A DNA stretch of 63,387 nt, filler included, from Kipferlia bialata (Eukaryota): assembly GCA_003568945.1 (NCBI GenBank). It is 5 parts of 5 records of this genome, joined end to end, with 100 filler letters (N's around TTAATTAATTAA, not from the genome) between each part and the next. Parts side by side here need not be neighbours in the genome. Positions count along the whole stretch, not along the records: positions 38,107 to 50,697 come from BDIP01001062.1; 4 more parts are not named here. One strand, written 5' to 3'. The notes under the pieces are model-generated. The model saw only the letters and a program-made list of their open reading frames with translations, made no database searches and had not been told where the DNA came from. Shown here one piece after another: positions 24,591-63,387 of this stretch. Numbering within the stretch: the stretch's first letter is position 1; every line of letters starts with the position of its first letter. A program made the translations under genes and the position numbers.

Positions 24591-24861
24591 GGTGCGTCAA
24601 CTGATACAGTGCCTTTAGACAGAGTGGTTGTGAGCCACTGATCTCTCGAGTTGATGCTCGGAGTCTACACCCTTTTGCTATTATTGATGAGAGAACAAAA
24701 ATGAAAGGGTGTAGACGTGCTTGGATTTTCAGCTGATGAGTGTCTTCTGAGGCACATACTCTGTATCAGAGTCAGACGCTACTGCCATTATTGTTAAGGC
24801 TACACTGCAATGCGCAGAGTTAGAAGCTATGCGGGTCAGTCAGGAGTCAATCCGTTCAGCG

Positions 24862-26427: not shown

Positions 26428-26499
26428 GGGCGCGTAGTTAAGTGGTATAACGCTCCCTTCGCATGGGAGAGGCCCGGGGTTCGATTCCCCGCGCGTCCA
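26428..26499 (+). tRNA. tRNA-Ala (anticodon CGC)
   Basis: GGGCGCG/CGCGTCC acceptor stem with the G3:U70 alanine identity pair, D arm, CTCCC-TTCGCAT-GGGAG anticodon arm, GGTTCGATTCC T loop; no intron, no encoded CCA. Confidence 0.96.
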
Positions 26500-26566
26500 C
26501 ATTTCATTGTCTTAGTCTGACCATTCAGTGAATCAAGGACAGAGTTGAACTCTTTTTCACCCGAAC

Positions 26567-29500
26567 ATGGCCACTGCAGCCCTCACCCTGCCAGCATACC
26601 TCGGCCCTGACGCCTGTGGGTTCCGCTGTGCTCATGTGGAGCGCATCGATGCTGCTGAGACCGTAGAGATCGTGAAGAGTGCCCTTTCGACTCGTTCTGC
26701 CCAGTGCAAGCTGTGCACAGGTTTGTTTCACTAGTATCTGCCTTCATGGACTATTTTTTATCATATATATGAGATTTGGAGAGAATAGCGTGTGTTGCCT
26801 CGGGGTCAGTATTCCTGTCAGTTCTCCATTCTGTCGCATTTACACAGTACATACCTTATATTATGGCTTCCTAGCCTTCTTGACAGACTTTATGGTGATA
26901 TTGGTGACAAGGGTAGTGTTTCCAGTGTATTCTTCCCCTCTATATGGCTCTTTTGTGATAATATATGTTTGGTACCGGTACCGTTATGACATCACCACTC
27001 TCCCCCACCCGCCCTCTCTCTCTTTCTCTCTTCCCCCCAATACCCGCGCTTATCCTTAGGCACTGGGTCTCTGTGGATCTGCATGCACTGTGGGACTGTG
27101 GTGTGCACAGCATCAGAGGGCAGGTGTGTATACAAGTATGAATGGTACCGGTATCGTCTTACTCTCTACTACGTTGTTGTGTCCCTAACTCCCAGCGAGC
27201 CCTCCCACCTGATCACCCACCTGGCAGACACCCTGACAGACGACATCCACGGCACACACGCACTGTACGTAAGTATGATATATAGTGTATGTCAGAACAT
27301 AGTACCCTCTCTTGCTGTATGTGCCTCTGACACCCAGGTACCTCTCCATCACCACTGGTGCCATATACTGTGCATGCTGTGACCAGGCAGTGCAGTACAC
27401 AGGTACATTGTCTTTCTGTCAGTCTCTCTCTATCACTCTGTCTCAAACGCTGTCTATATACCTCTCTATATTTATGCTGACCATGCAGTGCAGTACACAG
27501 TTGAATTGTCCATCAGTCTCCATCTCTTAGTGTGTATACCTTTCCGACCCACGCTCTGTGACTCAGATACACTGTCTATATTCTTACCTGTGTTTGTTTC
27601 TTGCCTTCCATATATCTCCCTATGCATGATATTGACCTCAGATGTTGTTGAGGCCCCAGCCCATGCCTCTTTCTCTCTCTCTCTGTCTCATATACACTGT
27701 CTATATACGAATGTGTACCTTTTCCGCTGTATGGGTTAATGACCCCAGATGTTGTTGAGACTCCAGCCCATGCCCCAGTCACAGAGGACGGAGAGGAGAA
27801 GGTGTGTGTGTGCTATATAGGCATGTATTTCAATCTGTTTATACCCACTCTATCGGTGCGTCTCACCTTAGCCCCCCATTAGTCCATCTCTCTCTCTCTC
27901 TCCCTCTTACTCTCCCTCACCTCAGCCCCCCTCCATCACCACCAGAGGCATGATTATCAGTGTCAGGCAGATGTGCCAAGGTTAGTAGTATTTGTATGTT
28001 AACCTAAAGTACGTATATTGTATATGTATGTTATAGTATCTGTATGATTGTCAGTATCAGGCAGGTGTGCCAAGGTATCTGGGTCTCTCTCTCTGCATTT
28101 TCCTCACTGTATATAGTCATGTATGCCGCCCCTCTTGAGATAAGTCCCGTACATTTCTCTCTATCTCTTTCCCTTCCTCTATACATATACTACATGTTTG
28201 CTTCATCTCACATCAGAGTCTCGTGCTGCCTCCAAGAGACTGGAGAATGAGAGGAAGAGGACACTCAGAGACGATATCAAGGTATTACATGTCATAGTCA
28301 TGCGTGACTATATACATATACACGATATATGTATATATATGATATATATATATACATGACATTCACATGCCTTTGCGCCTCTGTCTCTCTCTCTCTCTCA
28401 CCCTAGATCAACACCCCCATCCCTGTCCCTGCCTACCTAGTTTCTCAGGGCCAGACAGCGGTGGCACCAGTCACATGTGAGTGTATAGTACTGTACACTT
28501 CAATAGTTATTATGTATTGATGTTGTATCTATCCCTGTACCCTTCCCCTATCTCTTTTACCCCAGCATGTGTCCTCTGCCTCTCATATATATATGTGTGT
28601 TGTTCCCATACTCACTCTAGCCTGTGTCCCCCTGTGCCCTGCCTCTCTGACTGAGGCCGATGCCAAGACACTGGTCAGCCACACATCAATCACTGATGAG
28701 GGTGGAAGGTATACTATTTGTGTTTATATATATATGGTATATATACATATATATATTCCATATATTGAATGAGGAAGGGCGATTAGTCAGCCACACATCA
28801 ATCACTGATGAGGGTGGGAGGTACAGGATATATTTATATGTATTTCATACATGCATGGATGTTTTCAATTGTGTTAGTATCATTGCCACTCATGTTCAGG
28901 ATAGTGCCATATATATGTATATATAGTAGGCATTATATAATGTACCACTCATATTCAGGACCTTCACTGCCATGCAGCGTGACAAGAGACACAAGTCAGG
29001 GGCCAGGTTCACACCCAAGAAGAAGGTATAGATATATATATATATATATATATGGGGGGGAGGGGTGTAAATATTTGTGTATTTGGGTTTGTATCAGACA
29101 CAAGTCAGGGGCTAGGTTCACTCCCAAGAAGATAGTATCAATATATATGGATCACCTCTCTCTTTAGTATTGTAATGCTACACTCTCTCATACTCTGTTC
29201 TTTTCTAAGTCTTAGACCGGTTCCCAGGCCTCTGCACCCCCCACCCCCCCTTCTTTCTCTCTCTCTATGTCTCTATATCTCTATCTAACCCTTAGGCCGG
29301 TGCCAAGGCCTCTACCCCCAAGAAGATGCTCAACCCCCTGGCTAGGTACAGACCCTCGTATATATCTTTCTCTCTCTCTCTCTTTCTACACCCTTACTCG
29401 ATGCTCAACCCCCTGGCAAGGTAAAGACATAGACACTCTCTCTCTCTCTCTCTTTCTACACCCTTACTCGATGCTCAACCCTCTGGCTAGGTACAGACAT

Positions 29501-30536
29501 TCACTCTGTCTCTCTCTCTCTCTCTCTCTCTCTACACCCTTATCTTCAGGGCTGCCCTTTTGGCCAAGCAGAAGAGAGCGGCAGAGGCCCTCGAAGCAGC
29601 AGGTATAGACACATACTTATATGTATATATATATATATATAATATCTGTGTATATATATATATATATAATTGCGAATATGTTGTATTACTCTCTGAACAT
29701 GTATTCTCTTCTCTCTCTCCCTCTACACCCCTAATACCCAGGTGGTGATCCATCCCAGACTGAGGCATCAGAGACAGAGACTAGCCAGAGTGAGTGGTCC
29801 AGTATACATACATTAGTATATATGCTATGTGTGATTGATGAGTGAGAGCAGTCAACCCAGGTCTAGTGGGTATGAATGTGTTAATCCTGTATATGTATTA
29901 TCTCTTATGCCAGGTGAGAGCACGTCCAAGAGGCCCAGTAGTCAGAGAATGGGAGGTACAACATACAACATACATTACATTGTCCTTCTTCACCCGAACT
30001 ACTTTGCCAGATGGATCTGTCTTTCTCCCTCTCTCTCTCTCCCTCTACACCCCTTATACCTCTAGCTCTCTTTGGCCAGATGGCTGTGTCCTCTCTCTCT
30101 CTCTCTCTCTACACCCCTAATGCCCCTAGCTCTCTTTGGCCAGATGGCTGTGTCCTCAGGTGCCAAGAGGAGCAGCATGAAGCTGAACGTCACAGCAGCC
30201 TCACTTAACAAGGTATGATCTATGTGTTAACTGGACCCTTGGTGACAGGACCTCTCTGTGTGTGTGTGTCTCTCTCTCTCTCTGAGTGTGTTCTGTCTCT
30301 GATTCCCAGGCCCTTGGTGACAAGACCTTCAGGTCTCTCTTTCTCTCTTTTTGTATATTTTCATATATATACATATGTTTGTTTACATATATCTAATTCC
30401 CAGGCCCTTGGTGACAAGACCTTGAGGTCTCTCTTTCTCTCTCTGTGTGTATATATGTATATATGTCTCACTCCCAGGCCCTTGGTGACAAGACCCAGCA
30501 GATAGCAGCATGGAGGGCACTCCTCACAGCGGGTAT

Positions 30537-30576
<40 letters not shown>

Positions 30577-31317
30577 ATAATCAGGTATATACTGTGTATG
30601 TATTTACATATATATACTGATATATAGCAGCATGGAGGGCACTGCTCACAGCCGGTCTGACATACATACACTCACACACATATGTATATTTGTTCTCGTA
30701 CTTCTACATACATTGTAAAGGAGTCTAATACCAGGTGCTGTCATGAAGAAGTGTGGCTCCAAGGGCAAGCCCCATCCCAGGCACTTCAGCCTGGACACAG
30801 AGGGAACTAGGTATGTATATATATAGTACTATATTCTCTGTTATGATTATTTTTCAGTACCCGGCAGACTACCATAATAGTGTCCATTGGAGACAGGCTA
30901 TATGTACTATATATGTGTAGACTATAATATCTGTAGTATGTTTATACGATTGATGATTCTAACTCTCAGCATCCACTGGAGACAGGAGAAGAGGCACTCC
31001 TACAAGGAGAAGGATGCCATGCCTATCACAGACATCATCAAGGTACATATGACTTCTCTCTCTCTCCGTCTACACCCCTAATGCATAGCTTGTGCGTGGC
31101 CAGACCACCGAGGTGTTCAAGAGGAGCGTGGACCCTGCTCTGGAGGACAGAGCCTTCAGCGTCATTGGCACAGAGAGGTATAGTATGTACATATATGTGT
31201 GTATACACTTTGTGTCTTCTTCTTACCCTTAGGACCCTCGACCTGTATGCAAAGACAGAGGAGCAGCGGGAGGAGTGGATAGAGGCCATCGAGGGCATGA
31301 TGACAGTGGATATGTAG
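26567..31317 (+). CDS. Protein with N-terminal zf-UBP (BUZ)-like zinc finger and C-terminal PLC-type PH domain
   Basis: N-terminal exons: RCAHV..QCKLCTG|TGSLWICMHCGTVVC..|EPSHLITHL..HGTHAL|YLSITTGAIYCACCDQAV. C-terminal exons: GAVMKKCGSKGKPHPRHFSLDTEGT|SIHWRQ..ITDIIK|LVRGQTTEVFKR..RAFSVIGTER|TLDLYAKTEEQREEWIEAIEGMM. About 20 small exons. Confidence 0.8.
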
Positions 31318-31492
31318 ACAGTGTACAATAGATTGATATAGGAAGTGTGTTGGAGGACATGCATGGGAAAATGAGTGTTATAAACCCTTTCCTCATCTGG
31401 TACCAAAAGTAGAAGTCAACCCTTTGGGCCAAATTCATTTTTGCCTCTGGACAGCCTAGCAGAGTTGCCTTGCTCAAGCGTGGTTGTGTACT

Positions 31493-35044: not shown

Positions 35045-37188
35045 ATGACAATGGATACCGACAACCTCGCAGTTAACACCATCAGGTGTCTCTCGGCCGA
35101 CATGGTCTCTAAGGCCAAGAGCGGACACCCAGGAGCCCCCATCGGTGAGTTGTTGTAATATGGATGTTTTCCTATTGATTTCCGTCCCCCTGCTGGGTAA
35201 TATACCTCAGCTAACGTCTAGGATGTGCCCCCATCGCCCATGTGCTCTTCTCCGACCTTATGAAGTTCTACGCACCCGTCCCCAAGTGGATGGGACGCGA
35301 CTACTTTGTGCTGTCCAACGGCCACGCCTCTGCCCTCATGTACTCCATGCTGCACCTCGCTGGCTTCAAGCTGCCCATGTCTGAGCTCGAGAACTTCAGG
35401 CAGTTCGGTTCCAAGACCCCCGGCCACCCTGAGCGTGGAGTGACCCCAGGTGTTGAGGTCACCACCGGTCCTCTGGGTCAGGGTGTGTCCAACGCAGTGG
35501 GTATCGCCGTTGCTGCCAAGGTCATGGGCCACAAGTACAACAAGCCCAACTTCCCCCTGTTTGACAACCACGTGTACTCCATTGTGGGCGACGGATGCCT
35601 GATGGAGGGTGTGTCAGCCGAGGCCCTCTCTCTGGCCGGCACCCTCAACCTGGACAACCTCACAGTCATCTGGGACGACAACAAGATCACCATCGACGGA
35701 GCCACCGACCAGGCCTTTGCCGAGGACACCATCGCCAGGTTCAAGGCCTATGGCTTCGAGACCTTTGTGGTGGAGGAGGGAGACACCGACATTGTCGGCC
35801 TCAGGGAGACCCTGGCCAAGGCCAAGGCCTGCCCCAAGCCATCCTTCGTGGCTGTCCGCACCACCATCGGATACAAGTCTGCCAAGGAGGGCACAGCCGC
35901 TGTCCACGGCTCCCCCCTCAACGCCGAGCACCTAGCCGAGCTCAAGGGAGCCCTGGGCATGCCCGCCGACAAGTTCTTCCACGTGCCCGAGAGCGTGGAG
36001 GCCCACTACAAGGGCAAGGGCGTGGCCCGCGAGGCTGCCTTTGAGGAGTGGTCTCAGATGGTCGAGGCGTACCTGGCCACCTACCCCGAGAACGCCAACG
36101 TGGTGAAGAGGATCATCTCTGGTGAGCGTGAGGTCGAGGCTGACGCCGAGGCTCTCATTGCCACTCTCATGGAGAAGGACCTCAAGGACTCCTTCCCAGT
36201 GGGCAAGGGCCTCTCCACCCGTAAGGCCTCTGGCGAGGTGCTCTCCGCCCTCTACAACGAGCTGCCCTGGATGATGGGAGGCTCTGCTGACCTCTCCGGC
36301 TCCAACTGCACCCGCATTGCAGGTGCCGGTGTGTTTGGAAAGGACAACCGCGACAGCCGCTACATCCCCTTCGGAGTGAGGGAGCACGCTATGTGCGCCA
36401 TCTCCAACGGTATCGCCGCATACTCCACCGCCCTCGTCCCCTTCGACGCCACATTCCTCGTGTTCCTCGGGTACTGCGTGGGCGCCCTCAGGGTGGGAGC
36501 CCTGTCCAGGCAGAGGTCCATCCACGTGTTCACCCACGACTCCATCGGTCTGGGTGAGGACGGCCCCACCCACATGCCCATTGAGACCATGACCTACATC
36601 AGGTCCACCCCCAACATGGCTGACTGGAGGCCGGCTGACGGAGACGAGACCATCGGCGCCTACGCCTGGTCCGTGTGCTGCTCCGAGGGCCCCTCTGTGA
36701 TGGCTCTGTCCAGGCAGAACGTGCCCCACCTTGCTGGATCTACCCCTGCCAAGGCCATGCGCGGAGGATACGTTGTGGTGCAGGAGACCACCGAGGCCCC
36801 CAAGGTGGTCCTCATCTCCACAGGCACCGAGGTGTCCCTCACCATCGAGGCCGCCAAGGCTGTCGAGGCCGCATACGGCGTCGAGGGCTGTGTGCGTGTG
36901 GTGTCCATGCCTTCCATGGTCGTGTACAAGAGGCAGTCTGCTGAGTACCGCGCCTCCGTGGTCCCCGCTGGTGTGCCCGTTGTGTCTGTGGAGCCCCACC
37001 ACTCCATGTCCTGGGCCGGCCTCTCCCACTTCCACATCGGCCTCGACCGCTTTGGCGAGTCTGCCCCCATCAAGGCCCTGTACGAGCACTTTGGCTTCAC
37101 CCCCGAGGCCATCTGCGCCAAGGTCCAGAAGGTGGTCGCCCAGCTCGAGGGCAACGTGCCCGCCCTCGGATTCGTCCAGGTCGAGTAG
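35045..37188 (+). CDS. tkt: Transketolase
   Basis: Exon 35045-35144 (AVNTIRCLSADMVSKAKSGHPGAPI), intron 35145-35221, exon 35222-37188 with RDYFVLSNGHAS, TPGHPE, TTGPLGQG, GDGCLMEG..WDDN (TPP motif), FGVREHAM, THDSIGLGEDGPTH. Strong C-ending codon bias. Confidence 0.98.
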
Positions 37189-38106: not shown

Positions 38107-38157
<51 letters not shown>

Positions 38158-38159
38158 GA

Positions 38160-40613
38160 GATGCTCAGGCACACCCAGGGCCTTGGCATTGGCCAGGGCC
38201 TGGTATTTAGGGTGTAGAGGGAGATAGAGGTCCTTCACTACTCATCAGTATATATGCACTCATACCTTTGCCTTGTTCTCTCTCATCCTTTGGAATCCCA
38301 GTTGGATGTACTTGACAGAGGTGAAGGCACGAAGCCATGCACCGATAGAGACCTAGGGTTAGTAAACAATAGTAAATGAATATATATATATAGAGAGAGA
38401 GAGATTGATGGGTGAACTGGCCCTAAGCCAGGCACCCATGGATACCTATATATCAGTACTTAAGTATTGATGTAGATAGACAGATACAAGGAGAGAGAGA
38501 GAGACTCACCAGAGCAGAGTGCGGGTTGAGACAGCACACCACTGCATACTATTGTTGTTTGCAGTAGTATATACATATATATAGTGATACACATTCTTAT
38601 AGTAGTGTATACTACTGCTTACCAGGGCACTGTGGGGGTTGAGGCAGCACACCACCGCATACTTGAGTGCCACAGTAGAGTCATTGAAGGCAGTGCCGAG
38701 CATATCCGGCAGCCTAACATTAAGGGTGTAGAGGGAGAGAGAGAGAGAGAGAGACCCATACCTCAGTTTGTGCTTTGGCTTGCCTTTGATATAGAGGGTG
38801 AATATACTAATAATAAGAGACCCATACCTCAGCTTGTGCTTGGGCTTTCCGTTGGCCATGACGGCCTCTCTCTTGTTGGAGGTGCCTATGATAGAGGCGA
38901 GGACCTAGTATTAGACTCTCTCTATATATATATGTGTGTATATACATATATGCATGATGGCCTCTCTCTTGTTGGAGGCAAGGACCTGGGGTTAGACTAT
39001 ATGTAGATAGTATATATTACACATATATGTACGGCAAATGAATGACCTCTCTCTTGGCAAGGACATGAGTTAAGTAGCTGCATATACTATGCCATGTGTA
39101 TATACACATATATGCATATGGCCTGTCTCTTGTTGGACATGACAATGATTGTACTAACAAGGATAGTATACTCTTAGAGGATTTCCTTGTACCTCCACTC
39201 CTGCGTCTATGTTGCCGCATATCAGCACTGCCTCTGCAAATGCAGCATCGGACTCTAGCACAGCAGAGCAGATGCCGGAGAAGACGGGACCAGCGGCCTG
39301 GGGTCACTAATATACTGGTATATTATAGAACTATCTATTCACACATACCTCCAGCCACGTGAGCCTTGTGAATGCCTCCTTTGATACTCCATCTATCTCT
39401 GTCTCTCTCTCTCTCTCTTTATATATATATACAATATATATATATATATACCTCTAGCCACGTGAGCCTTGTGAATGCCTCCTTGAGGATGGGGTACTTG
39501 GCCAGGGGGGTCTGTCTGGGGGGTGAGGAACAGAGATTCTACAGAAGCTATAGAATCTATCATTGTAAGTGTCTATGAATGTATTTCCATACCTCTTCTC
39601 CAGTAAGGGTGTCAGTGCCACCAGCTTGGACACATCCATATCTCTCTCTCTCTATATATATATATACATATATATATACCTCTTCTCTAATAGTGGTGTC
39701 AGTGCCACCAGCTTGGACACATCCATCTTGGCCTGGAGGGCATCCCAGTTCTAGTGGTTAGAGTACACACACACACATATATATATATACAGAGAGAGAG
39801 AGAGATATATAGAGAGAGAGAACATCTTGGCCTGCAGGGCATCCCAGTTCTGGAGTAAGATGTATATGTACATGTATATATACACACACATATATATAGA
39901 TGGAGATAGAGAGAGAGATACCATCCATCTTGGCCTGGAGGGCATCCCAGTTCTGGAGGGGTTAGATATACACACAGACATACACACATGAATATACTAT
40001 GTATGTACCTATCTCTATAACTATATGAGTATTGTATGATGGTATACATCTATACCTGTGCCATGGCATACATGCATGCCGCACTGGAGTGCACTTCTAT
40101 GTCACCCCTCATGACCATGGAGATGAGGTTGAACAGGAGCATAAGGACCTGGAATGAGGGGCTAGAGAGAGAGAGAGAGAGAGAGATACACTCATGTATT
40201 TGAACAGGAGCATAAGGACCTAGAGTGAGAGTGTATGTGTGAGAGAGAGTACAAGTTGATACAGTATATGCGTACTATAGCTATACAATTGCATGTACCT
40301 GTCCATCATATACGTGATACAATAGTTTACATACTACTCTTATTATCTACTCACCTGGAACTGTCCGAATCCAAAGAGTGAGTTTGGGTTGATGGTGCTT
40401 GCCATCACATATATATATATATATACATATATATATGTATACATACATTTACATAGACATTATGGTGTGTATCTACATAACTATTCACAACTCACCTGGA
40501 ACTGTCCGAATCCGAACAAGGAGTTGGGGTTGATTGTGCTGGCCATCATGTGACCAAAGGACTGGGAGAAGATGCCGCTAACGGCTGGCACTGTAAGGGA
40601 GCCATAACCTAGG

Positions 40614-40650
<37 letters not shown>

Positions 40651-40954
40651 TTAAGCCAAGGGGATGGAGCAGATAAGACTAAGAGAATAGGCATACCCTT
40701 CTCCTTGACGAACTGGCCAATACCGTTGGCTAGGAACTTCATCTGACGCTTGACAGAGGCATAGCCTGATAATAAGGGTGTAGAGGGAGAGAATAAGGGG
40801 TGTAGGAGGAGAGAGAGATCGCGACCATCTATGGACACCGAGTATCTATACTCATTGTAGTATAGAAGAATATTCTAAACTATATCTCACTACCTGCGAG
40901 GATTGGGACAGGGAAGTTGGCAAAGTGACCCTCGATCATTCGCACTGGTGTGAG

Positions 40955-40998
<44 letters not shown>

Positions 40999-43900
40999 TC
41001 ATACATACTGGAGTGGGCAGGAGACACTCATACGATAACAGTAATACCTGGTGTAACCAATCCGTAGTCGATGCCTGGTCTGGCCCAGAGCTTGGGGACA
41101 GCATGGTAGCTGGGGGTAAGTGATAGTATATCTATATCTATTAAGCCTCATTAAGTGTTTGCCACTATCTGAACAAAGTAATACGAAACTCACCAGTCCT
41201 CTATGCCCTGTGGCAGTCTCAAGAGGTGCTTGGCACTACATATATGTATAATATATACATACATATATATATATATATGTATTATGTATATACATAGTTC
41301 TCTATACTATTATAGATATCAATTAGATACTCACCCGTCCTCTATGCCCTGTGCCAGTCTCAGCAAGTGCTTAGTACTACATAGTGTGTATATACATATA
41401 CAAACATACATATACATATACATATACATACCCATCTTCTATGCCTTGGGCCAGTCTAAGTAAGTGCTTGGCACTCCTCAGAATGGGGACAGAGGCAGAG
41501 ACAGAGGGAGAGGCATTGACAAGCTGGTATTAAGGGTGTAGAGGGAGAGAGAGAGAGACTCCTCAGTATGGGCACAGAGGCAGAGACAGAGGGAGAGGCA
41601 TTGACAAGCTGGGGTAAAGGGTGTAGAGAGAGAGAGAGAGAGACTCTACACTGTCCACTATAGAGACTCATACCCTCTTTGTCATCTCCTTGAGGTCCTT
41701 CCAGTATGTGTTTCTGTTGGAGTGGGCCAGGTCCTCAGTCAAGGCAGCCTAAGGGTAAGTAGAGAGAGAGATACTCTGAGAGAGAGAGAGAGAGAAAGAG
41801 GAGTGGGCCAGGTCCTCAGTTAAGGCAGCCTAGCAGTGAGATACATATACACACATTCGTGCCTGGCATAATAGAAACAACCATTTGCACGAGCGGAGAG
41901 AGAGAGACTATGAGTATATATATAGTATATTAATACCTCCTGCAAGGGCCCAGTCTCACTGTCGGGACACGCCTTCTGGAACACATCGAGGATCTGTTAT
42001 TAATGGGTGCGGAGAGAGAGAACAATACGATTTAAGGGTGCATGTCATGCACTGCATGAATTTAGGAAATTCAATTTATATCAATTTAGTAAATTCAATT
42101 TACAGTATACTGTCTTGACAACCACTGTACAATATATATATACAATCTATAATATATATAAATGTAATACATATAATAGCATACCTCCAGTGTCAGTGTT
42201 GGCTTGATTGGCCTGCAGTCCAGGAAGGTGTTGGAGGCCTAGAGGGTTAGTATAAAAGAGAGAGAAAGAGAGAGAGAGAGAGAATGAGGGTCTGCAGTCC
42301 AGGAAGGTGTTGGAGGCCTAAGGGTAAGGTAATAAGAGAGAGAGAGAGAGAGCGAGAGACAGATAGACCGTGTTGGAGGAAAAGGACCGTAGCTAACCAA
42401 CAAAAGAGGGAGTGAGAGAGAGCAGGGAAATACCTTGTAGAGCTCCGGCTTGAATGCCACGAAGACCCTCAGCTTGTGCACGGGCTGCTTCAGTCTGGAG
42501 GGTGAGAGAGTAGAAACACAAAGAATGGTATGATTCCCAGCGACATATTATGATATAGTGACTGAGCTTGTGGACAGGCTGCTTCAGTCTGAAAGGTGAG
42601 AAGGGACATATATATATATATATGTGTGTGTAATTAGAGAATACAACACGTACAGGTATGTACATATATAGATATACATATACCCATATATACACCCACC
42701 TGTCCATGTACTTGCCGGTATATATACACGTGTGAGATTGACACACTACACACATACATACACATATGTATGTAAACGTGTATATGAGTACCCCCACCTG
42801 ACCAGGTACTTGCCATACACACTATATACAATGTATATATATATCATTATATATATACAATATATATATCATGTATATATATATACAATATATATATCTA
42901 TTAGAATACATACACTCCCACCTGACCAGGTACTTGCCATACATACACTATATTACATTCATATATTATCAAACATGCCTGACCAGGTACTTGCCGTTCA
43001 GGAAGCATACTACTATATAGTAGATACAAAGAAATATATGGTTATATATATATACATAAATCTAACAAGTATGTACCCCCACCTGACCAGGTACTTGCCG
43101 TTCAGGAAGCTTACTATTGTGTATATANNNNNNNNNNNNNNNNNNNNNNNNNNNNNNNNNNNNNNNNNNNNNNNNNNNNNNNNNNNNNNNNNNNNNNTAT
43201 GTATACGTGTATATAAGTACCCCCACCTGACCAGGTACTTGCCGTTCAGGAACCTGAGCATCTGACCGGGCCTACAGGGTTAGGAAGGGAGAGAAAAGAG
43301 AGTGAGAGGAGGGGAATATTCAATGTGTGTCTCTACCGTCATAGATGATTAGATTAAACAACTCATTAACGCATTGTGTCTCTCCAAGTGTACAGGGTGA
43401 TGACTGTCGAGTATATCAAATGAATGCACACATATCCCATATTGGTTACACATATATACTATAGTATTCAGATAACACTCACTTAGTATTGCGGCCAGTG
43501 TACAGGGTGATGACTCTGTCGAAGAAGTGCTGGGCATCTGCAGTTAGGCTATTCGAAGATTGAACACATATGCATTATATATATATGGTCTATACCGGCT
43601 GTCGGTGCCCCGTTGCTGTGGAATATGATGTGGGCACCGAATATTCATATATATACACATATAAATATTATGCAGTGTAAATAGAGTGTATATACCTGCC
43701 GTTGGCGCCCCGTTGCTGTGGAATATGATGTGGGCACCAGTCTCCAGGGACTTCATGGCAATGGGGAACAGGGCCTAGTATGAGTACACGTACACATATA
43801 TACCTACATATATATCTTACTATATGAACTATTCATCTTAGTGGGCAGGTCCAGGTTGAGCACTGCAATCTGTCCCTCCATATACATGTGGGTATACACT

Positions 43901-46773
43901 ATACTATATCTATATAACTATATATACATGTATACTCTATACTATATATACACATTCATAATAATATATATATATACCTTGGTGGGCAGGTCCAGGTTCA
44001 GCACTGCAATCTGTCCCTCCATATATATGTATACACTATTATATATATACATATATATATATATTACTATATTACTATATATACTGTGTATGCTATACCT
44101 TAGTAGTAAAATATAGTAGTATATACAGTATATAGAATATAGAATAGTATATATAGTATATACAATATACCTTCGTGGGCAGGTCCAGGTTCAGCACTGC
44201 AATCTGGCACTTCTTGCGCATGGCAGCTAGATATCTGGGAATTAGGGTGTAGAGGAGGAGAGAGAGATCTTACGCATGGCAGCCAGGTATCTGGGAATAG
44301 GGAGAGAAAGCGATGGTAGAAAGAGGCAATATTGTCTACTTATGGTGAAGGGTAGCTTAGGGGTATACATATGTGTGCTTAAGAATATATAATTATATAT
44401 ATATACCTCCTGTTGTCTGCACTTGTGTTCTGTGCCTGCAGTCCCTCTAACAGTCCATCCCTCCACATCTGCACACAGGTGGCAACCTATATATTAAAGG
44501 TGTAGAGGGAGAGAGAGAGAATATCTGGACACACGTGGCAACCTGGGCATTAAGGGTGTAGAGGGAGGGAGATAGTGCGCTCCTGAAGCCCATATATACT
44601 AACCTATATCCCCTGCACATTATAGAAACACGGTATGCTCTGCAGGAAGTATATATAATGCAATACTATATATATACATATACATACTATATACATACCT
44701 CTATGCCATGTACATTGTCAAAGAATGGGATGCTCTGTGGGAAGTGCACCGTGGCCATACAGGCACGGACACAGGAGAGGAGGGAAGAATCAACGGAGGG
44801 GAGGGCGCCTATTGTAAGAGGGGGCCACCAACTAAGGAACAATACATAACCCATATAATGCATGTATATACCTGAGTATAGCCACAAGAATGGCTTCATC
44901 TGCTGGTTGGCTGGGAACATGAAGTAGTACTGGCCAGAGGCCATGCCAGCTAGGAACAGGGAGGTAGACAGGGATACATCTGTCATGTCCTACACATTAG
45001 AGAGAGAGAGAGAGAGAAAGACCAGGAGTGACAGTGAGAATAGTGGTCCAGACTAAGAGAGAGAGAGAGGAGAGAGAGAGAGAGATCCACTCACCTCCAC
45101 CCCACACAGCACGTTGACCCTGGCAATCAGGCCCTTGAAGTTGTCCTGAAGGGTGAATAAAGGGTGTAGAGGGAGAGAATAAAGGGTGTAGAGGGAGAGA
45201 GATATCAATGCCATGGAATACAGTAATCCAGAATACATGCATATAATGTACAATAGCAATACTTTCATATATATACAATGTGTATACACTGTATATACAA
45301 TACCTGCTCCGGATGGCTGAAGAACTCGTTGGAGAACAGATAGAGCACAGCAAGGTGGGCACCCCTGGTGACAAGGACCTTCATCTCGGCCTGGGGTTAA
45401 AGGGTGTAGAGGGAGAGACAGATCCTTCACACATGAATATGTATCTCAATATGGACAAGTATATATACCTCCTTGCTCTCATCCCTTGGCAGCACCGTCC
45501 TGATGCTCTGTCTGATCTCAGCCAGTACTGTCTGGACCTCGTCCAGCTCGGGGGAGGGCTCTAACTCCTATCGCGTAAGAAAACCCCTTTCAATAGAATA
45601 CAGTTAAACCGTGCTTCTACAGTCTACAGGCATATTGAATGTAGATGTCAGCGAAACAGGCGCATATGCATATACCCACCTGCAGTAGTGCCTTCTCGTG
45701 TCTCTCCAGGACCCTCATGGTGTTGCCAAGCTCAATGCGCTCAGCCTATGGTTAAGGTATGCAAACATACACACACGCAAGAGACTGTCAGAACCAGTAT
45801 CATGCAACTGAAAGAGTATATAGCGCTATCAATAATGATTGGTAAATACCATACCTTTGCCCTCTTCCAGTATCTCTCCATGGCGCTCATGGCATACATG
45901 GTGAACTGGTATTAAGGGTGTAGAGGGAGAGAGAGAGAATAAGAGAGAGAGAGATGGTACTCATGGCATACTATGGTACACTCTAGTAATTCATATCATG
46001 TATATAAGCTATATACTAAGGGTGTAGACAGAGAGAGAGATACCTGGTTGAACTGTGGCGCACTCTCTGGGTACATGGTGGTCACAGTGTCAAACATCAG
46101 TGCTACTCTAAGTGTCAGAATGAATACACAATACATATACATAAATATGTATATTAATGGGATACTCATTAGAATAACATGATTAATTCTCTGGGTACAT
46201 GGTGGTCACGGTGTCAAACATCAGAGCAACCCTAGGCATAAGATAGGCATAAGAATAGTAGGATTTACAAAAGAATAGGGAGTAATTCATTGGATATGTC
46301 GCCATAACGGTGTCAAACATGAGGGCAACTCTAGGTGTAAGAGAGAGTGATATATAGTGTAATAGTAGACATACACATCTATGTATGTACATTAACGTAC
46401 TGGCTGAAAAAGAACTTGAATGCGTCTGGTGCAATCTTGCGTCCGAAGCGTGACTCTAGGTATCTGTACACACTGTTGGTGGACTGTAACAGTGATCCAA
46501 GTCTGCGGGTCAGAGAGAGCGAGAGAGAGAGACTGTTCGTGGAGTATAACATAGTGAGCCAAGGCTTCTTTAGAAAGTGTACCTTGATGGGTATGCCATA
46601 TTTAGTCCGTGACCCAGTCTGCTAGGGCATATATATATATATATGATATAGTACATATACATACATATATAGTATACTTACATATATATTTACTTATGTA
46701 TATACCTACTAGGGTATGCCATATTAAGTCCGTGACTCAGTCTGCTAGGGTATCCCATGAAAATAATACATAC

Positions 46774-46810
<37 letters not shown>

Positions 46811-47600
46811 CAAGTGTCTATACCTTGATGGGTATGCCATGTTGAGCCCGTGACTCAGCCTGCTAGGGTATATATATGATACAGCATACATACATATATA
46901 TATATCATCAATAGGCATATACCTAGAGGGGTATGCCATATAATACATATATATAATTAATATATATAGACATTGATGAAAATACCTGCTGGGATACGCC
47001 ATGTTGAGCCCGTGACTCAGCCTGCTAGGGGGAGAGTGTCTGGTGGTCACAATGACACCCATGTGCTGGGCTGGGTGTAAATAGGGGTGTAGAGGGAGAG
47101 AGAGAGAGAGAGAGAGAGAAGATACAATGACACCCATGTGCTGGGCTGGGNNNNNNNNGAGAGAGAGAGAGAGAAGATACAATGACACCCATGTGCTGGG
47201 CTGGGTGTAAATAAGGGTGTAGGGGAGGAGAGGGAGGGAGAGAGAGAGAAGTTACAATGACACCCATGTGCTGGGCTGGAGGGTAAATAAGGGTGTAGGG
47301 GAGGAGAGAGAGGGAGAGAGAGAGAAGTTACAATGACACCCATGTGCTGGGCTGGGGGTAAATAAGGGTGTAGAGGGGGAGAGAGAGAGAGAGAAATTAC
47401 AATGACACCCATGTGCTGGGCTGGGTGTAAATGAGGGTGTAGAAAAGGGTGTAGATAGATAGAGAGAGAGAGAGAGAATGTATGTGTATACCTAGCTTCA
47501 TGGTGAGTACAGCTGCATCTGGCTGAGGGAGCACATACTTCTCGCCAAGGGTGAGGTACAACTGACCAAGAGCAGCCCTGGTATTAAGGGTGTAGAGAGA

Positions 47601-47631
<31 letters not shown>

Positions 47632-47869
47632 GTACAACTGACCAAGGGCAGCCCTGGTATTAAGGGGTGTAGAGGTAGAGAGAGAGAGAGACAGAGAGAG
47701 AGGGATAGGTGACCCAGGGCAGTCAAGATAATCAAGTGTAATGATGGATATACATATGTAGATATACACATACCTTGAGAACACGGGTGGGATGAGTCCG
47801 TTGTTGAAGGAGGAGACAGTCTGTCTGAGGACAGCTGAGTCCTTAATCATATCGCCTGGTATTAAGGGT

Positions 47870-47908
<39 letters not shown>

Positions 47909-48670
47909 GGTTAGCTGAGTCCTTGATCATGTCGCCTGGTATTAAGGGTGTAAAAGGGGAGACTGTATAATGTGTACCTGGTGCAGAATCAAATATATTA
48001 TGGGTCTAGAGAGAGAGAGAGAGAGAGGGCTGCTTACCTGGAATGTGCAGCAACACCCTGCTGAAAAGTGTCTCACATATGTTCCCAGATATTCTACACA
48101 CATATTAGTAGTAGTACTACACAATATACATACAATATTTGCTTACCTGGTATATGCAGTAGTACTCTACTGAAGAGTGTCTTCTCACTGGTGAACTTGG
48201 TGGATATGGGGGAGGTGACATCGCCACCGGGGAAGACCTAGAATAAGAGACAAAACACTCAGAGAGAGAGAGAGAGAGATGGGGAAGACCTATAGTGAGT
48301 AAAGCGAGAAAGCAGTCAAGTATCTATGATATGAGAAGTACTCACAGAGTACGAATGCACATACCTTGTATGGTGACACGTTCATCTCAACCCGCTGGCC
48401 CTCCATCTCACTGGGGTTAGAGGGAGGGAAGGAGAGAGAGATTCAACTGTACACTCTATGTACGATACCTATACATGTTAGTATATACGCACTACACACA
48501 CCTCGCCTTGTCCAGGGGCAGTGCCACATGTACTTTCACACATACACCATACTCTCTCTTCCTCTCTACATATGACCCCATAAACTATATGGTATGAACT
48601 ATATGCACACTATACCCACCTAGCCTCATCTAGAGGTAGTGCCACCTGGGCTGGGAGGCCACTAATACTA

Positions 48671-48702
<32 letters not shown>

Positions 48703-49414
48703 CATACTGCATACCTCGCCTCATCTAGAGGTAGTGCCACCTGGGCAGGCAGACCACAGGCAAGGACAATGGCTAGACGGACCAGGGATGCTATCTGGGA
48801 TGGTTAGTATTGAGCGAATACAATAAACGTACAATATTCTATCCTATATGGGATACCTATGTACCAATATATACAACACATACTATTTAACGAGTTCATA
48901 CCTGCTCCTCCTATGTACCATATACTACACTACCTATATATGAAACCTATACATCTATATCAACGATAAGCAATAAAATAACATCACATACTAGTACCTG
49001 CTCCTCGTCGTTCTGGAATGTACTATATACTATACTACATGGGAAAAATGATATATAACTAAGATTAAGATACCTATGTCTCTATTTATATGTAATAATA
49101 CAATCAGATACCTGCTCCTCCTCGTTCTGGAATGACAGAGAGGCCCACACAACCTGGGGGTGAAAAGGGGTGTAGAGAGAGAGAGAGAGAAATATATATA
49201 TATAGAGCTGAGGGTGAAATGGGTGTAGAGGGGGAGAGAGAGAGAGATGACAGTGAGGCCACACAACCTGGGGGTGGAAAGGGGTGTAGAGGGGGAGAGA
49301 GAGGGGAAAGAAATGGCAGTGGCAGTAATCAGGAGATGTACATTGTGTAAACATACACTAATAAACATACATATATACCTGCCGCAATGGAGACTCGTGT
49401 GACTCTGCCACACC

Positions 49415-49467
<53 letters not shown>

Positions 49468-49568
49468 CCTGCTGCAGTGGCGACTCGTGTGACTCTGCCA
49501 CACCCAGACCCCTTCTGATGACATCAAGGTCAACAACTAGCCTGATATTAGGGTATATATATAGGTAT

Positions 49569-49601
<33 letters not shown>

Positions 49602-49960
49602 CCTCTCCTGATGACATCGAGGTCAGCAACAGGCCTGATATTAGGGAACACAATATATATATACAATATTCATATATATATAGAGATAGAGGTACTGTCC
49701 TGATGACACCGACATTCCTGTCTCAACAACTGGCCTATGGTTAGAATACATGTATACTTGTATTTACAATATATGACAATAGGAGAAAGAGAAAGGAGAG
49801 AGGTCCTCCTGATGATATGGTTGTCAAACACTAACACAAGAAATAAGAAGACAAAAGGGGATTCATATACATGTATGTACAATACCTAGGCAGGTATCTC
49901 TCGTGCTGGGATCCAAAGAAGGATGCACTGGAGACAGTGGATATACCTGGGAATTAAGGG

Positions 49961-50001
<41 letters not shown>

Positions 50002-50642
50002 CACTGGAGACAGTGGATAAACCTGGGAATGAGGGTGTAGAGAGGGAAAACGGCATACATTTTCCACATAATAATGGTACACATGTATATGTATAAGAAC
50101 ACTACATATCACTCTGAGCCACGGATAAGTGAACATTTAGAATATTGACTATTTATGATACATTCCACACACATATTATAGTACAATTAATGTATATCAC
50201 TCTGTGCATCGGATGCCACAGTCCTAGTATATACATACTGCACATGACGTGTACATATATATGTATATTAATACACATATATGTATATACTATTACACAT
50301 ATATATAATTTCCATACCGCTCTGTGCCACTGATGCCCCGTCCCAGTTCTCACTCTTGTTGTACCTGGGAATAAGGGTGTAGAGGGAGAGAGAATGTGAA
50401 GATGTTACTGGAGTTACTGCTAGGTGGAGAAAACAGCATCAAGCAATATCAGTACACACTGCTGCCATGGCTGCCCTGTGATTGCATCCTCTCTCTCTAT
50501 ACATATACACACATGATTCTGTATTATATACACTAGTCTCTCTCTCTCTCCATTATATATCTATATCTATACATATCATACGTACACACTGCTGCCCTGA
50601 CTGCCCTGTGAGGCACTGTCCCACTTGTCAGAGCTGCCCTCT
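38160..50642 (-). CDS. Internal part of one very large hypothetical protein split into roughly 40-45 exons of 30-120 nt
   Basis: Splice signals across the contig are on the minus strand and the exons checked join in frame, e.g. AALGQLYLTLGEKYVLPQPDAAVLTMKL, PAQHMGVIVTTRHSPPSRLSHGLNMAYPSR, VALMFDTVTTMYPESAPQFNQ, YLAAMRKKCQIAVLNLDLPTK, YGSLTVPAVSGIFSQSFGHMMASTINPNSLFGFGQFQ. No start or stop seen; family not recognised. Confidence 0.75.
47050..47477 (-). repeat. Tandem array, 6 copies of a ~55-75 nt unit (3' splice cassette + first ~22 nt of an exon)
   Basis: CAATGACACCCATGTGCTGGGCTGG at 47050, 47125, 47180, 47255, 47331 and 47400, most followed by TAAGGGTGTAG..(GA)n; one copy abuts an 8-nt N gap. 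Confidence 0.9.
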
Positions 50643-50648
50643 AGGGGT

Positions 50649-50697
<49 letters not shown>

Positions 50698-53444: not shown

Positions 53445-54765
53445 CTCTCTTGAGAGCCCCTGTTGTCTCGTGGAAGCATGACTGACAGATAGGGACAGAG
53501 AGGGAGCCTGACTCAAGGATGCCTAGAGTTAAGGGTGTAGAGGGAGAGAGAGAGAGAGAGAGAGACTGGCTGATGGGGACAGATGTATAAATACTATTAC
53601 TGGTACCTAATACCCTGCCGACCTTCTCGTCTGCTATCGGGGCATCGGGGAACAGATCAATGATGGACTGTCTGCAGTGAGAGTCATACTATGTATATAT
53701 GTATATATATATATATACGTGTATATCTATCTATATACACATGTCTAGAGGGGAATCGGGGAAGAGATCGATGATGGACTGTCTAGGGTGAAAGGATAAA
53801 TATACGTATTTAAATGAACGTGTGTTGGTGGTCGACGATGCTCTGCGTATGCATTAGACAGTCATCCTATTATACACAATGCATATACCATTGTATATGC
53901 ATCTACATACCTCATGCCCTCCACTCCCTCTCATTCGTGGGTGTCTTCTCTCTCTCTCTCTCTCTCTCTCCCCATATATACATATGTATGTGTGTGAATA
54001 TAACCATATACCTCATGCCCTCCACCCCCTCTGCCTCGTGTGTGTCTGCACCTCCATCCAGGAAGTTGGGGGGTAGCTGATCCAGGCCTGATATTACATG
54101 TACAGACCGAGAATGACATACAGTAAGAGAGATATATATATAGAGAGAGAGGGAGAGAGACTGACATTAGTGGCATTTCGCGAGATAGGAACCCAATTCT
54201 TGAGAATCCACATTGTATATAGAATCACAAATTGAAATACATATGCATATCAAGGGAGAGACATGGCTCATGATATATATAAGGAATGAATAGACAGAGA
54301 AAGAGATAGGGAGGGGGAGAGTACCTTCGTAGTCGAATGTGTATGGCTGGAGAGCCTGGCCATCGTCAAAGAAGTCCTTGAGACCTGGGAATAAGGGTGT
54401 AGAGAGAGAGAGAGAGAAGGAGACAGTGCCAGCTGCACCATTGCATGGGGGCACCATTGTATTGTGGGGACTAGAGTGAACATATCCAAATATACACCTA
54501 CCTACCGAGGGACATGTTGGATATACACGTATACATCTATATATTGTATGTCTATAGAATATACTTGTGTACCTAATGGCTTGTTGCATCTTCGCCTTAG
54601 GGTATATATGCATATCATCGTTATTCTCCATCAGTATCAGTGTCAGTATCTATATCGGTATCTATATCAGTTCTATACATATGTACCTAAGGGCATGTTG
54701 CATATGCCACACACGAACAGAGTGGGGCTGCTATCCATGGACAGACCAAGGCTGACATAAGGGGG

Positions 54766-55246: not shown

Positions 55247-56584
55247 AACACTTCTACTCTCTCTTCCCCTCTCTTAGAGTCTCAGCGTCTCAGTCAATTC
55301 AAGGACCTCTAAACTACCCCAGGTAGATCCACTGAGTGAGCCTAGAGATGCACAGTCCCCACTACTTGATGAGGCTGGTTAAGAGAGAAGTACAGTGTGA
55401 GAATGAAGTCGATCAGCAACAGACGTTTCAGCGTATGAACTCTTGACAGGTTTTCCCTCTCAATATCATTGAGTTCTCACTCTCTGATACTCTTTCCTCT
55501 CTCTTCACACTCCCGATACCCCCAATCACTCAAGGTCGGGTACTTTAGGGCGTTCTGCCTCACAGGTATTTAATGGTGCACATGTATGGGTAGTGAGTGC
55601 AGGAGACTCATGCGTACATCTAGTTACATACGTATACAATGGTACCAAGTTGTGGTATAGAGAGGGGTGGGGGTGATTAGTGTAGTCAACCCTCCTCTAG
55701 CATTGTATACCTCTTAGACTTAACACTCCCTATTGTTAGGTACTGTGTATAACACGGCTGGTTTGATGGTGATGTGTTGATATGTCGGTACCGGTACCGG
55801 TACTGTTTCAGTACATGTAGTTTCTATTTGTCTCCTCTACACATATACACACTCTCCAAGGTCTGAAAATATCCCTATGTCAGCATTCCAGTGTATTTTA
55901 CCAGTATATGTACTGTGGAGGCTGTATGCGTATGTACCCATATTGGTACCGCTGGTACTAGCAGTCATCACATAGTAGTACCCACTACTCTGTTTTGTTT
56001 CCATTTGTCCTCTCCCTCTCCCTCTCCCACCCTCCCTCTTTGGACTCTCTTTCCCCCTGTTCCCATCCTTGTTCTCATTCAGTATCCACTTCTCTTTTCT
56101 CTGTCACTGTCTCTCCCTCCCTCTCTCTCTCTCTCTCCCTCTCTCCCTCTCTCTGAGTATATATATGAATGACGTCTCTCTCTTTTCTCACCCAGTGTCT
56201 ATGGATCTGTCTCTCTATCCCTCCCTTCTCTCTCTCCCTCTCAGCATATTCTATGTATTCTCTCTCTTCCTCACCCCCAGTGTCTATGGGTCTCTTGTCT
56301 CTATCCCCTTAGCTCCCTCTCAGAATATACTGCTGTCTGATGTATATTGATGTCTCTCTTCCTCACCCCCAGTGTCTATGGGTCTGTTCTCATACTCTCT
56401 CTCTCTCTCTCTCTCTTCATAAATATGAGTGTGTTTCTATACCCATATATATCAGTCTCTCTTCTCACCCCCAGTGTCGATGGGTCTGTTCTCATACTCT
56501 CTCTCTCTCTCTCCCCCTTCATACATATGAGTATGTTTCTAAACCCATATATGAATATAGCTGTCTCTTTCTCACCCCCAGTCT

Positions 56585-58909
56585 ATGGGTCTGTTCTCAT
56601 GCTGCACAAAGGGGGACACAGGTATAATTGATATTTAGGTTTACATATATATATATATCATGTGATGTATAATGTGTGAGTATAGTGTATGTATAGTGTA
56701 GATGCATATTCTCATGCTGCACAAAGGGGGAGACAGGTATAGATGTATCACAGTTATATAGTATGTATGTATATTGTATGTACGCAATATATATTTTTAA
56801 AGAAGGAACTATTAGAATAGTATATGTAAGGTACATTCTTATAATAGTACTACTCTATCTGTTTGTATGTGTCTATCTGTTTGAATCTCTCTGATTATCT
56901 CACTCTCTTACCACCAGGCCGTGCCCCCCTGGCAGAGTATATACATGCATTATACATATCTATCTATATACTAATTGGTCCTACATAGTATGTGAATCAT
57001 TGTGTCTCACCCCTAGGCCGTGCCCCCCTGGCACATGACACAGAGACAGGAGGTACATAGTATACATACCCTTGAGTATATGTAGTAGTGTATGGTGGAT
57101 AGTTACAGTGTATATCTATTAACCACTGGCACATGACACAGAGACAGGAGGTACATACACACTCACACACACACACATATATATATGAATATGGTATATA
57201 GTATAGTGTATATCTATTAACCACTGGCACANNNNNNNNNTGAATATGGTATATAGTATAGTGTATATCTATTAACCACTGGCACATGACACAGAGACAG
57301 GAGGTGGGGGATAGTATAGATAGATGATTGTATACGTGTATATATGTATATATTTAGTAGTACTATATATTCTCTATGTGTATATACCCCTGGCACATGA
57401 CACAGAGTCAGGAGGTGGGGGATAGTATATATTGTGTATATATATTTGTAGTAATTTCATTGTGTATATGCCCCCCCTGGCAGATTACACAGAGTCAGGA
57501 GGTAGGAGATATACTATGTATGTTTCACTCTTACATACACATTTTTATATGGCGGAAGTTGGAGTGTACTTCATATAGTACCAGACATGTGGCCATACAT
57601 ATTAGTCACTCTCATTCTCTCTCTCTCTCCCCTTACCCTACACATACTCCCTCTAGAGATTATAATCTATCTCTCTATCTCTCTCTGTGTCTACATCTAT
57701 ATATACAGTTTTTATACACACATGTGTATCTATACCCCTTTACCCTAGACATGCTGCCCCTAGAGATTATGGTCTCTCTCTCTCTCTCTGTATCTCTCTC
57801 TCTATATATATCTATAAATGTGTGTATATATATGTACATCCCTCTTACCCTAGACATGCTCCCCCTGGAGGTTGAGGGTCAGGGTGAGGGCCAGACACAG
57901 ACATGGGATGAGGGAGGTATGTATACATATTTACATAAATATATAGATATATGCATATGTATCACTTAGATTATCCCTTACTGTAGGTGAGATACAGACA
58001 TGGGATGAGGGAGGTATATATAGATATATGCATATATATGTATATACATCAGTTAGATAGACCCTTACTGTAGGCCAGACCTCTGCATGGGATGAGGGTG
58101 TGACCCCATTACCCATGTCACCCAGGACACCGGACATGGGGGCATATAGCACAGGTATTATATACTATTTACACACTCATATGTATGTATGTATACACTT
58201 ATATAGATATACATGTATAGACCGGACGTGTGTGCATACAGCACAGGCACTTCTATTACTCTCTACCCATCACCGTATCTTTTGCTAATTGAGTATATTG
58301 GTAATATTGATTATATATATAGTGTTTTTACGCGGCCTCCTCAATTGCGGGGTATTGGAGACACTGTCCCTACATTGTTGTTCCATTATATTACTCCAGC
58401 CCCTCAGATATCGATTGTTCAGCCAGTAGTAGTGGCCGGAGGCATAGACCCTGTATCATAATGTATTTACTATATATTCTATATATCCTATTCTTTGATA
58501 TCTCACCCTAGCCCCTCAAGTCACCCAGTCTGCCATGGCCAGAGGCATACCCTCTGCACCATAGTACATTATACCATATGTATACTAATACAACTATATA
58601 CCTATTCTCTCTTTTGTATCTCACTCTAGCCCCTCAAATCCCCCCTCACCCTGTCCTGGCCAGAGGCATACCCTCTGTACCCTTCCCACCCACATTCGAC
58701 TCCATCTGTGGGTCAGACTTCAGGTATATGTGATAGTGCTCTCTTTCTCTCTCTCTCTACATCCTTTATTTGGAGCGTGTGTTCCCTCTATGTATGTCCT
58801 TTTCTCTCTCTCTCCTCACCTCAGTGTACCACCCTTGCCCTTGACACTGTTGAGCCACATAGGTACATGGTAATATATACACCCACATGTATATATGTTA
58901 CTTGATTTA

Positions 58910-58942
<33 letters not shown>

Positions 58943-60169: not shown

Positions 60170-60211
<42 letters not shown>

Positions 60212-60295
60212 CTCTCTTATACCAGACAGACTGCTGTCCCGGGTGGGCGTGAGGTCCCATCTCTCTCTCTATATATATAATGAGACACATATATA

Positions 60296-60332
<37 letters not shown>

Positions 60333-63200: not shown

Positions 63201-63332
63201 ATAGATAATAGTATATAATGTATCTGTATATATATATATACATTTGTATATATATCATGTCTGCACCTGTGCCTAGACGTGCCAGATGCATATGTGAATG
63301 CATACTGTATAGATACTATACAAATATATGAC

Positions 63333-63387
<55 letters not shown>

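Follow-up and report, generated by a model that had tools for sequence, protein, structure and literature searches.

The 3′ ends of introns in Kipferlia bialata appear to consist of two parts, an organism-wide branch point–AG signal and, in a minority of introns, a CT tract followed by an exact ten-base core, for which spreading by CT-primed, repair-type copying between introns is the reading we favor at about even chances. The core-bearing acceptors are real and form a subclass, apparently undescribed so far, within a known kind of splice acceptor. The usual view is that splice signals converge one site at a time; in this case, an entire acceptor haplotype seems to pass from one existing intron to another.

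Window and Gene Models

The window is a stretch of 63,387 nt composed of five K. bialata contigs, and all counts are limited to it. The N44-TTAATTAATTAA-N44 linkers at 12607, 25310, 38007, and 50698 join separate contigs and are non-biological. Exon queries returned the K. bialata proteins P0123 and P0124 with 100% identity, of which P0123 has no Pfam match and P0124 one match below the cut-off. The set of 62 annotated introns was obtained by exact spliced mapping and rests on public gene models. It comprises 41 GT-AG introns of the 42-exon gene G1 (KIPB_004798, 38173–50638, minus strand, mapped with P0123), 20 introns of G2 (KIPB_004801, 56585–63201, plus strand), and the single intron of a transketolase gene (35260–37188), whose protein is 100% identical to a K. 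bialata protein. A small gene finder trained on these introns yielded 81 further predicted ones in ten regions, giving a total of 143. Branch-point statistics use only the 62 annotated introns because the 81 others were predicted with the same model. Four of 14 regions were dropped before counting (C2b with four introns, C1b with one, C2e with none, and the opposite-strand control G4p with nine), as were the last six of the 12 introns of the predicted gene G4, which were judged unreliable; none of the dropped intron ends carries the core, as read by eye from the printed ends.

Two gene regimes are seen along the window. Compact genes (1–25309) contain short, GC-richer introns with medians of 65 to 106 nt in eight of nine genes, and expanded genes (38107–63387) contain long, microsatellite-rich introns with medians of 141 to 233 nt. 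A tRNA gene is located at 26428–26499 (plus strand). The Rfam scan of the window gave a tRNA and weak, microsatellite-driven matches and no snRNA.

The Acceptor Common to Nearly All Introns

Judged from its consensus, the 3′ half of the cassette is the organism-wide acceptor, that is, a predicted branch point fused to the AG. In 58 of the 62 annotated introns, a YTNAY motif has its A at positions −7 to −10, counted from the intron end; the same holds for 39 of 340 internal YAG sites. Herein the branch A, its position being taken from the consensus, is placed at −7 to −9 in 59 of 62. The branch pentamers are degenerate, with 15 different ones in 61 of the 62 introns and none called in the remaining one, and a strict extended consensus of the CTRACAC type does not extend to all 62. 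GT-AG spliceosomal splicing is confirmed by six RNA joints with CT..AC ends (run X1), four of them identical to annotated introns. A sequence-only reading had described the cassette as going beyond what the branch and acceptor consensus needs, which is correct for the core and incorrect for the 3′ half, being the general acceptor.

The K. bialata genome contains 124,912 introns (PMC5874029). Additional file 9 of PMC6679479 lists SF1, Tat-SF1, U2AF35, and all U11/U12 proteins as not found in this organism and U2AF65 as found, and the available text of that paper gives no snRNA candidates for it. A description of the K. bialata 3′ consensus was not found in the open literature, subscription papers lying outside the search. 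A second stereotyped style, mostly CTGACCC(C)AG, is seen in the acceptors of a predicted gene at 5890–7608 (minus strand), named by eye as casein kinase II alpha-like; gene-specific acceptor styles in general showed no effect (p 0.48).

The Core Motif

The sequence TCTACACCC occurs 40 times in the window versus 1.26 times expected from dinucleotide shuffles, which bears out the earlier claim of a motif shared by many introns. Nineteen copies stand at the 3′ end of an annotated or predicted intron, 12 lie before an AG that is not used, and nine lack an AG at the expected distance. Within the last 45 nt of the 143 acceptors, it is found 19 times, where Markov models of orders 1 to 5 trained on the same ends expect 0.2, 0.4, 1.2, 4.3, and 9.9 copies and models trained on motif-free ends 0.03 to 0.25. 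The latter comparison shows an excess beyond microsatellite and branch-point composition.

The core CTCTACACCC is present in 20 of 143 acceptors, or about one in seven: 14 of 41 in G1, four of 20 in the predicted gene G3, and two of six in G4. It is absent from ten other genes and from 123 acceptors. All core acceptors have a CT tract (20 of 64 acceptors with such a tract versus 0 of 79 others, p 1.5e-8), and the 56 introns of nine compact genes are free of the core, in agreement with the near-absence from compact genes that had been noted before. In 16 of 20 cases, 11 to 12 nt separate the core from the intron end, and a T follows the branch A in 14 of 20 core acceptors versus 13 of 41 CT-tract acceptors without core (p 0.006).

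The core is a discrete block that is present all-or-none, not a graded matrix. Twenty exact copies stand beside six one-off copies (shuffling gives an expectation of three), and the spacer behind the core differs at 20 of 72 positions; a core decaying at the rate of the spacer would give approximately 54 one-off copies. Therefore, the core is either homogenized or selected. Intronic CT tracts carry it only in the sense orientation (24 of 89 versus 0 of 14 antisense, p 0.036). The presence of the core shows no association with the length of the intron (p 0.27 and 0.39), core introns do not cluster within G1 (four adjacent pairs versus 4.4 expected, p 0.75), and the cassette overall has no gene-level subvariants (p 0.36). 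The subvariant CCTAAT was noted post hoc in three of the four core acceptors of G3 versus 0 of 16 elsewhere.

Of 17 sites listed in the sequence-only reading, 16 contain CTACACC, and 60331 is the variant ATACACCC. The consensus as written there is exact at only three of the 17 because the part after the branch point varies, and 44551, 30042, and 60112, taken for intron ends, are unused upstream copies. Used acceptors do not carry the core more often than decoys: among used and unused versions of one acceptor, the core is found in the used version only twice, in the unused version only twice, in both seven times, and in neither 16 times.

Pattern scans for relatives with the motif gave 0 matches in metagenomes, or three in unrelated-looking context with a shorter pattern, one match without acceptor context in viral contigs, and 0 matches in prokaryote genomes. 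At 24664–24715, two inverted copies of TCTACACCCTTT lie 28 nt apart in intergenic sequence without a CT tract, perhaps a hairpin or a chance occurrence.

The core could in principle have arisen independently at each site by slippage of CT, TA, and CA microsatellites at the branch point, or be an adapter or assembly artefact. The strict tie to CT tracts fits with this, as do variants at 60346 and 49542 in which a TA run replaces the TA of the core and, for an artefact, the fact that the published genome was built from short reads (PMC5874029). Convergence is opposed by the excess over motif-free acceptors given above and by the scarcity of near-variants. For an adapter, the flanks would have to be other than the genomic CT tract and CC(C/T) that surround the core, and three copies end RNA-spliced introns, with further RNA contigs carrying the motif. 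Overall, this explanation is very improbable and already largely refuted.

Located Cassettes and RNA Support

The cassette that was first pointed out (41524–41558, minus strand) is the 3′ end of G1 intron 29 (41673–41524), as placed by exact spliced mapping of P0123, and lies outside the RNA-covered region. It begins with a CT dinucleotide tract 5′ of the branch point (41543–41558), followed by the invariant core TCTACACCC at 41534–41542, with CUACAC at 41541–41536, and by the fused predicted branch point and CAG acceptor (41524–41534), in which the putative branch A is 41531 or 41530 (−8/−7). Directly upstream (41559–41643, minus strand), a tandem copy repeats the CT tract, core, AG (41609), and approximately 50 nt of exon start and is unused in the annotation.

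RNA evidence covers 38107–41234 and comes from one run (X1) of assembled contigs, perhaps of the same sample as the window; no contig of runs X2, X8, or X3 aligned, which carries no evidential weight. Three of the four joints that equal annotated introns end in the core, all on the minus strand: at 38200–38218, where the joint skips 66 nt; at 38714–38732, where it skips 114 nt; and at 40766–40805, where a doubled core (core-TTATT-CT-core) precedes the spliced acceptor. The same junction of two cores recurs in a different G1 intron at 45146–45191 (minus strand, identified in the sequence). The doubled-core stretch is matched twice by an RNA contig that comes from another locus, and we read the letters between the two matches as acceptor-like.

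On the plus strand, our gene model of G3 has four predicted core acceptors within 29531–31088 (29549, 29741, 30129, and 31088), with unused copies at 29385, 29455, and 30044. The model of G4 has two on the minus strand within 53523–54403 (54385 and 53523). Within 60112–60346 (plus strand), intron 11 of G2 carries the exact core in an unused upstream copy (60129), and the acceptor in use (60346) has a variant that is one letter off. The CT tract, core, and branch motif also occur together three times in antisense (59145–59391, minus strand) inside annotated exons 8 and 9 of G2, itself a plus-strand gene, where they are read as GVEGE; two of them derive from one 36-nt duplication, and their exon status is that of the annotation only.

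Origin of the Core

For the copying that we favor, a broken end within a CT tract would invade the CT tract of another intron, copy the core together with the branch motif, and rejoin at the resident branch point or AG. Repeated rounds would homogenize the bases adjoining the tract most and leave the spacer variable, and the core would be a tolerated passenger of a working acceptor and unnecessary for splicing. Direct support exists for the two-part anatomy, the fixed spacing, the use of three copies in RNA, and the restriction to CT-tract acceptors and boundary-duplication genes; invasion, copying, and rejoining are modeled on general knowledge of templated insertion (available text of PMC7407515).

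The core is confined to four genes that contain tandem copies of exon ends, and therefore copying is its likeliest origin. Within these boundary-copy genes, it is present in 20 of 87 introns versus 0 of 56 elsewhere (p 2.7e-5) and, among CT-tract acceptors, in 20 of 48 versus 0 of 16 (p 0.0013), both with the genes grouped post hoc. The same doubled core in two different G1 introns, the double match of the RNA contig from another locus, the discreteness of the block, its absence from 123 of 143 acceptors, its association with a single type of branch point (a T following the branch A), and the even gain and loss of the core between used and unused acceptor versions (two and two) point in the same direction. 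The antisense copies in annotated exons favor copying as well because selection for splicing should not act there. However, the core varies far less than the spacer does, so frequent homogenization or selection is needed; neither clustering of neighbors in G1 nor overall gene-level subvariants are seen; and cores in introns are sense-only, which pure DNA copying explains only via two-sided homology at acceptors. Acceptor-side copies are no richer in core introns (seven of 20 versus 16 of 67, p 0.39). In a literature search, templated repair as a route for spreading a splice-acceptor haplotype was not found reported.

The earlier proposal that a short element is copied between introns had two forms, of which the conversion-like one remains the best reading and the introner-like one fails the tests for a shared 5′ end, body, length, and inverted repeats. 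Introner elements are intron-generating transposons, by which one sequence comes to be shared by introns in unrelated genes. Their hallmarks are similarity over the whole intron including the 5′ end, similar lengths, terminal inverted repeats, target-site duplication, and presence/absence polymorphism at new intron positions. A sequence shared among unrelated genes is found in Kipferlia too, but it comprises only the last 20 to 30 nt. Core introns have no common 5′ end (common substring in the first 30 nt of 6.3 versus 6.1), body, or length (46–421 nt), and terminal inverted repeats are rejected since the 5′ and 3′ ends do not covary (p 0.87 for core introns, 0.41 for all). Direct repeats across intron boundaries are in slight excess over all 143 introns (2.97 versus 2.83, p 0.0005), driven by a few cases of 6 to 8 nt, and reach p 0.076 in core introns alone.

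It is improbable that the core is the relic of an old burst of an intron-generating element of which only the 3′ end is still recognizable. One block shared across three genes on three contigs and the small overall excess of boundary direct repeats would be in line with such a burst. The unshared 5′ ends, the missing covariation of inverted repeats, the spread of lengths, and the non-significant excess of boundary repeats in core introns are not, and uniform decay would hardly erode the whole body of an element and leave its core exact.

U12-type introns have an RTATCC donor and a branch site close to the AG. The sequence CCTTAAT likewise resembles the U12 branch motif and lies close to the AG. 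A U12 class was nevertheless rejected: a GTATCC/RTATCC donor is found in 0 of 20 core introns and 1 of 143 overall, and U11/U12 proteins are among those not found in K. bialata (PMC6679479, Additional file 9).

Selection provides a further, possible but rather unlikely explanation. The core would herein be a cis-element located 4 to 5 nt upstream of the true branch A, at which the branch-recognition loop of U2 pairs in a non-branching manner or a dedicated protein binds. With similarly limited confidence, docking at the core might aid 3′ site recognition in a spliceosome seemingly devoid of SF1 and U2AF35, which, like Tat-SF1, are listed as not found in Additional file 9, U2AF65 being listed as found. 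CUACAC is the exact, unbulged complement of GUGUAG in Giardia U2, as given in the available text of PMC3510501, and equals the Giardia branch motif minus one A. All-or-none conservation beside a variable spacer, the fixed distance to the intron end, and the sense-only occurrence in introns argue for selection too. The binding site for a factor or small RNA suggested by the sequence-only reading may thus draw on the all-or-none core and its complementarity to a fornicate U2; two predictions for U2 did not come out. Wobble-compatible YTRYRY at offsets 4 and 5 occurs 0 and five times in 103 other acceptors versus 2.0 expected each, and branch points preceded by the core are not weaker in their pairing to the Giardia U2 sequence (4.2 versus 4.1, p 0.41). 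Furthermore, the U2 complement covers only part of the constant block, the core is not linked to intron length, and it does not mark used over unused acceptors. Homologous used and unused pairs differ at 9 of 100 core bases versus 25 of 155 bases thereafter (p 0.13; one pair per intron, p 0.50); a by-eye impression of a core less diverged than the spacer in these pairs was not upheld by this scripted count. Pairing of the core with the donor of its own intron was tested and rejected.

Copying and selection can both be true. In the most far-reaching combination, which we consider doubtful, the core acceptors would form a discrete class of 3′ splice site, the second one in this organism. Its hexamer, complementary to U2 without a bulge, would take the place of SF1/U2AF35 and dock U2 just 5′ of the branch point. 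This class would have been spread by a genome-wide templated repair that also stacks working boundaries from highly diverged alleles in half of the introns of some genes.

Tandem Exon-Boundary Copies Within Introns

Tandem copies of neighboring exon ends are present in 45 of the 87 introns of the four boundary-copy genes versus 0 of 56 elsewhere, including 28 of the 41 introns of G1, the gene with 14 core acceptors. The pattern of their differences is probably more surprising than the motif itself. In three genes, 76 intronic partial exon copies were collected by nucleotide alignment, which is blind to frame; no row of the copy table was dropped, and a few rows are probably chance alignments. 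Compared with the coding exon, 132 of 487 synonymous (pS 0.27) and 47 of 1562 non-synonymous sites (pN 0.03) differ, with 34, 14, and 131 differences at the three codon positions, each of 683. The copies with this bias lie in 38107–50697, 26560–31320, and 56380–63387. For G1 taken by itself, 112 of 307 synonymous and 21 of 1019 non-synonymous sites differ; the bias is weaker in G2 and G3. For a copy decaying since its duplication, a pN/pS of about 0.5 or above is to be expected. Among the copies themselves, the bias is smaller, with 28 codons of 275 differing synonymously and 21 non-synonymously. The splice signals are likewise retained: of 27 unused acceptors, 26 keep the AG and 25 the YTNAY, while the intervening bases diverge, and donor copies keep the GT in 35 of 39.

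Divergence that is almost only synonymous suggests that the copies encoded protein until recently as parts of other alleles or paralogues. The simplest reading is that they were coding in diverged alleles and may have been pasted in tandem by one-sided templated repair. Stacking of haplotypes by the assembly may be the source instead, against which stand the presence of up to five versions per exon and the lack of RNA cover for several copies. Unless they are an assembly effect, the copies offer an unusual window on boundary duplication and intron gain. The literature searched, as far as its text was available, contained no report of such a synonymous pattern in intronic exon copies.

In the RNA, the listed exon pieces match the annotated copies without other letters, and two joints land on the copies flanking exon 39750–39680. 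At 39593–39952 (minus strand), an RNA contig matches the upstream (39952–39930) and downstream (39628–39593) copies of exon 36 and not the annotated 39750–39680, which may be a mapping effect near skipped repeats. Five exons have both upstream and downstream partial copies (4, 11, 22, and 36 of G1 and 2 of G2), and the breakpoints nearly meet in four of them (36/34, 23/28, 31/24, and 17/8, with 25/40 in the fifth), which would fit an exon split apart by the insertion of a full copy. G2 also contains annotated tandem near-duplicate exons at 57854–58154 (QTWDEGG) and 61412–61721 (TVVPVRAVR), both on the plus strand; in these, both splice sites survived the duplication of a boundary, and the gene apparently gained an exon and an intron.

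Comparison With Known Systems

The closest known kind to the tandem copies of Kipferlia is, by analogy, the amphioxus "mirage" minisatellite, described in the available text of PMC3087553 as tandem intron–exon boundary copies within an intron that are apparently spliced out. In both systems, the copies span the intron–exon boundary, and in Kipferlia, they raise the local number of motifs, an unused AG following 12 of the 40 copies. Compared with what that text reports of mirages, the Kipferlia copies are different in diverging almost only synonymously, in keeping AG, branch motif, and GT, and in occupying 45 of 87 introns. Mirages leave the sharing of the core between unrelated introns unexplained. 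Templated insertion or ectopic recombination in double-strand-break repair, as outlined in the available part of PMC7407515, involves, like the copying proposed here, short duplications, near or ectopic donors, and joins at microhomology.

The general acceptor resembles the fused branch point–3′ splice site of Giardia (VCTRACACRCAG), Trichomonas, and Spironucleus (RCTAACAARHTAG). According to the accessible text of PMC6679479, the GT-AG borders, the near-fixed short distance from branch point to AG, and the layout without a pyrimidine tract between the two are shared with Kipferlia, and S. vortens also has a short pyrimidine motif immediately 5′ of the branch point. Unlike in these organisms, the branch motif of K. 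bialata is a degenerate YTNAY in an intron-rich genome, and a minority class adds the CT tract and the exact ten-base core. The fused layout offers a means of probing for the K. bialata U2, which is still missing. It was known from intron-poor parasites; that it also holds in an intron-rich, free-living relative makes it unlikely to be a by-product of genome reduction.
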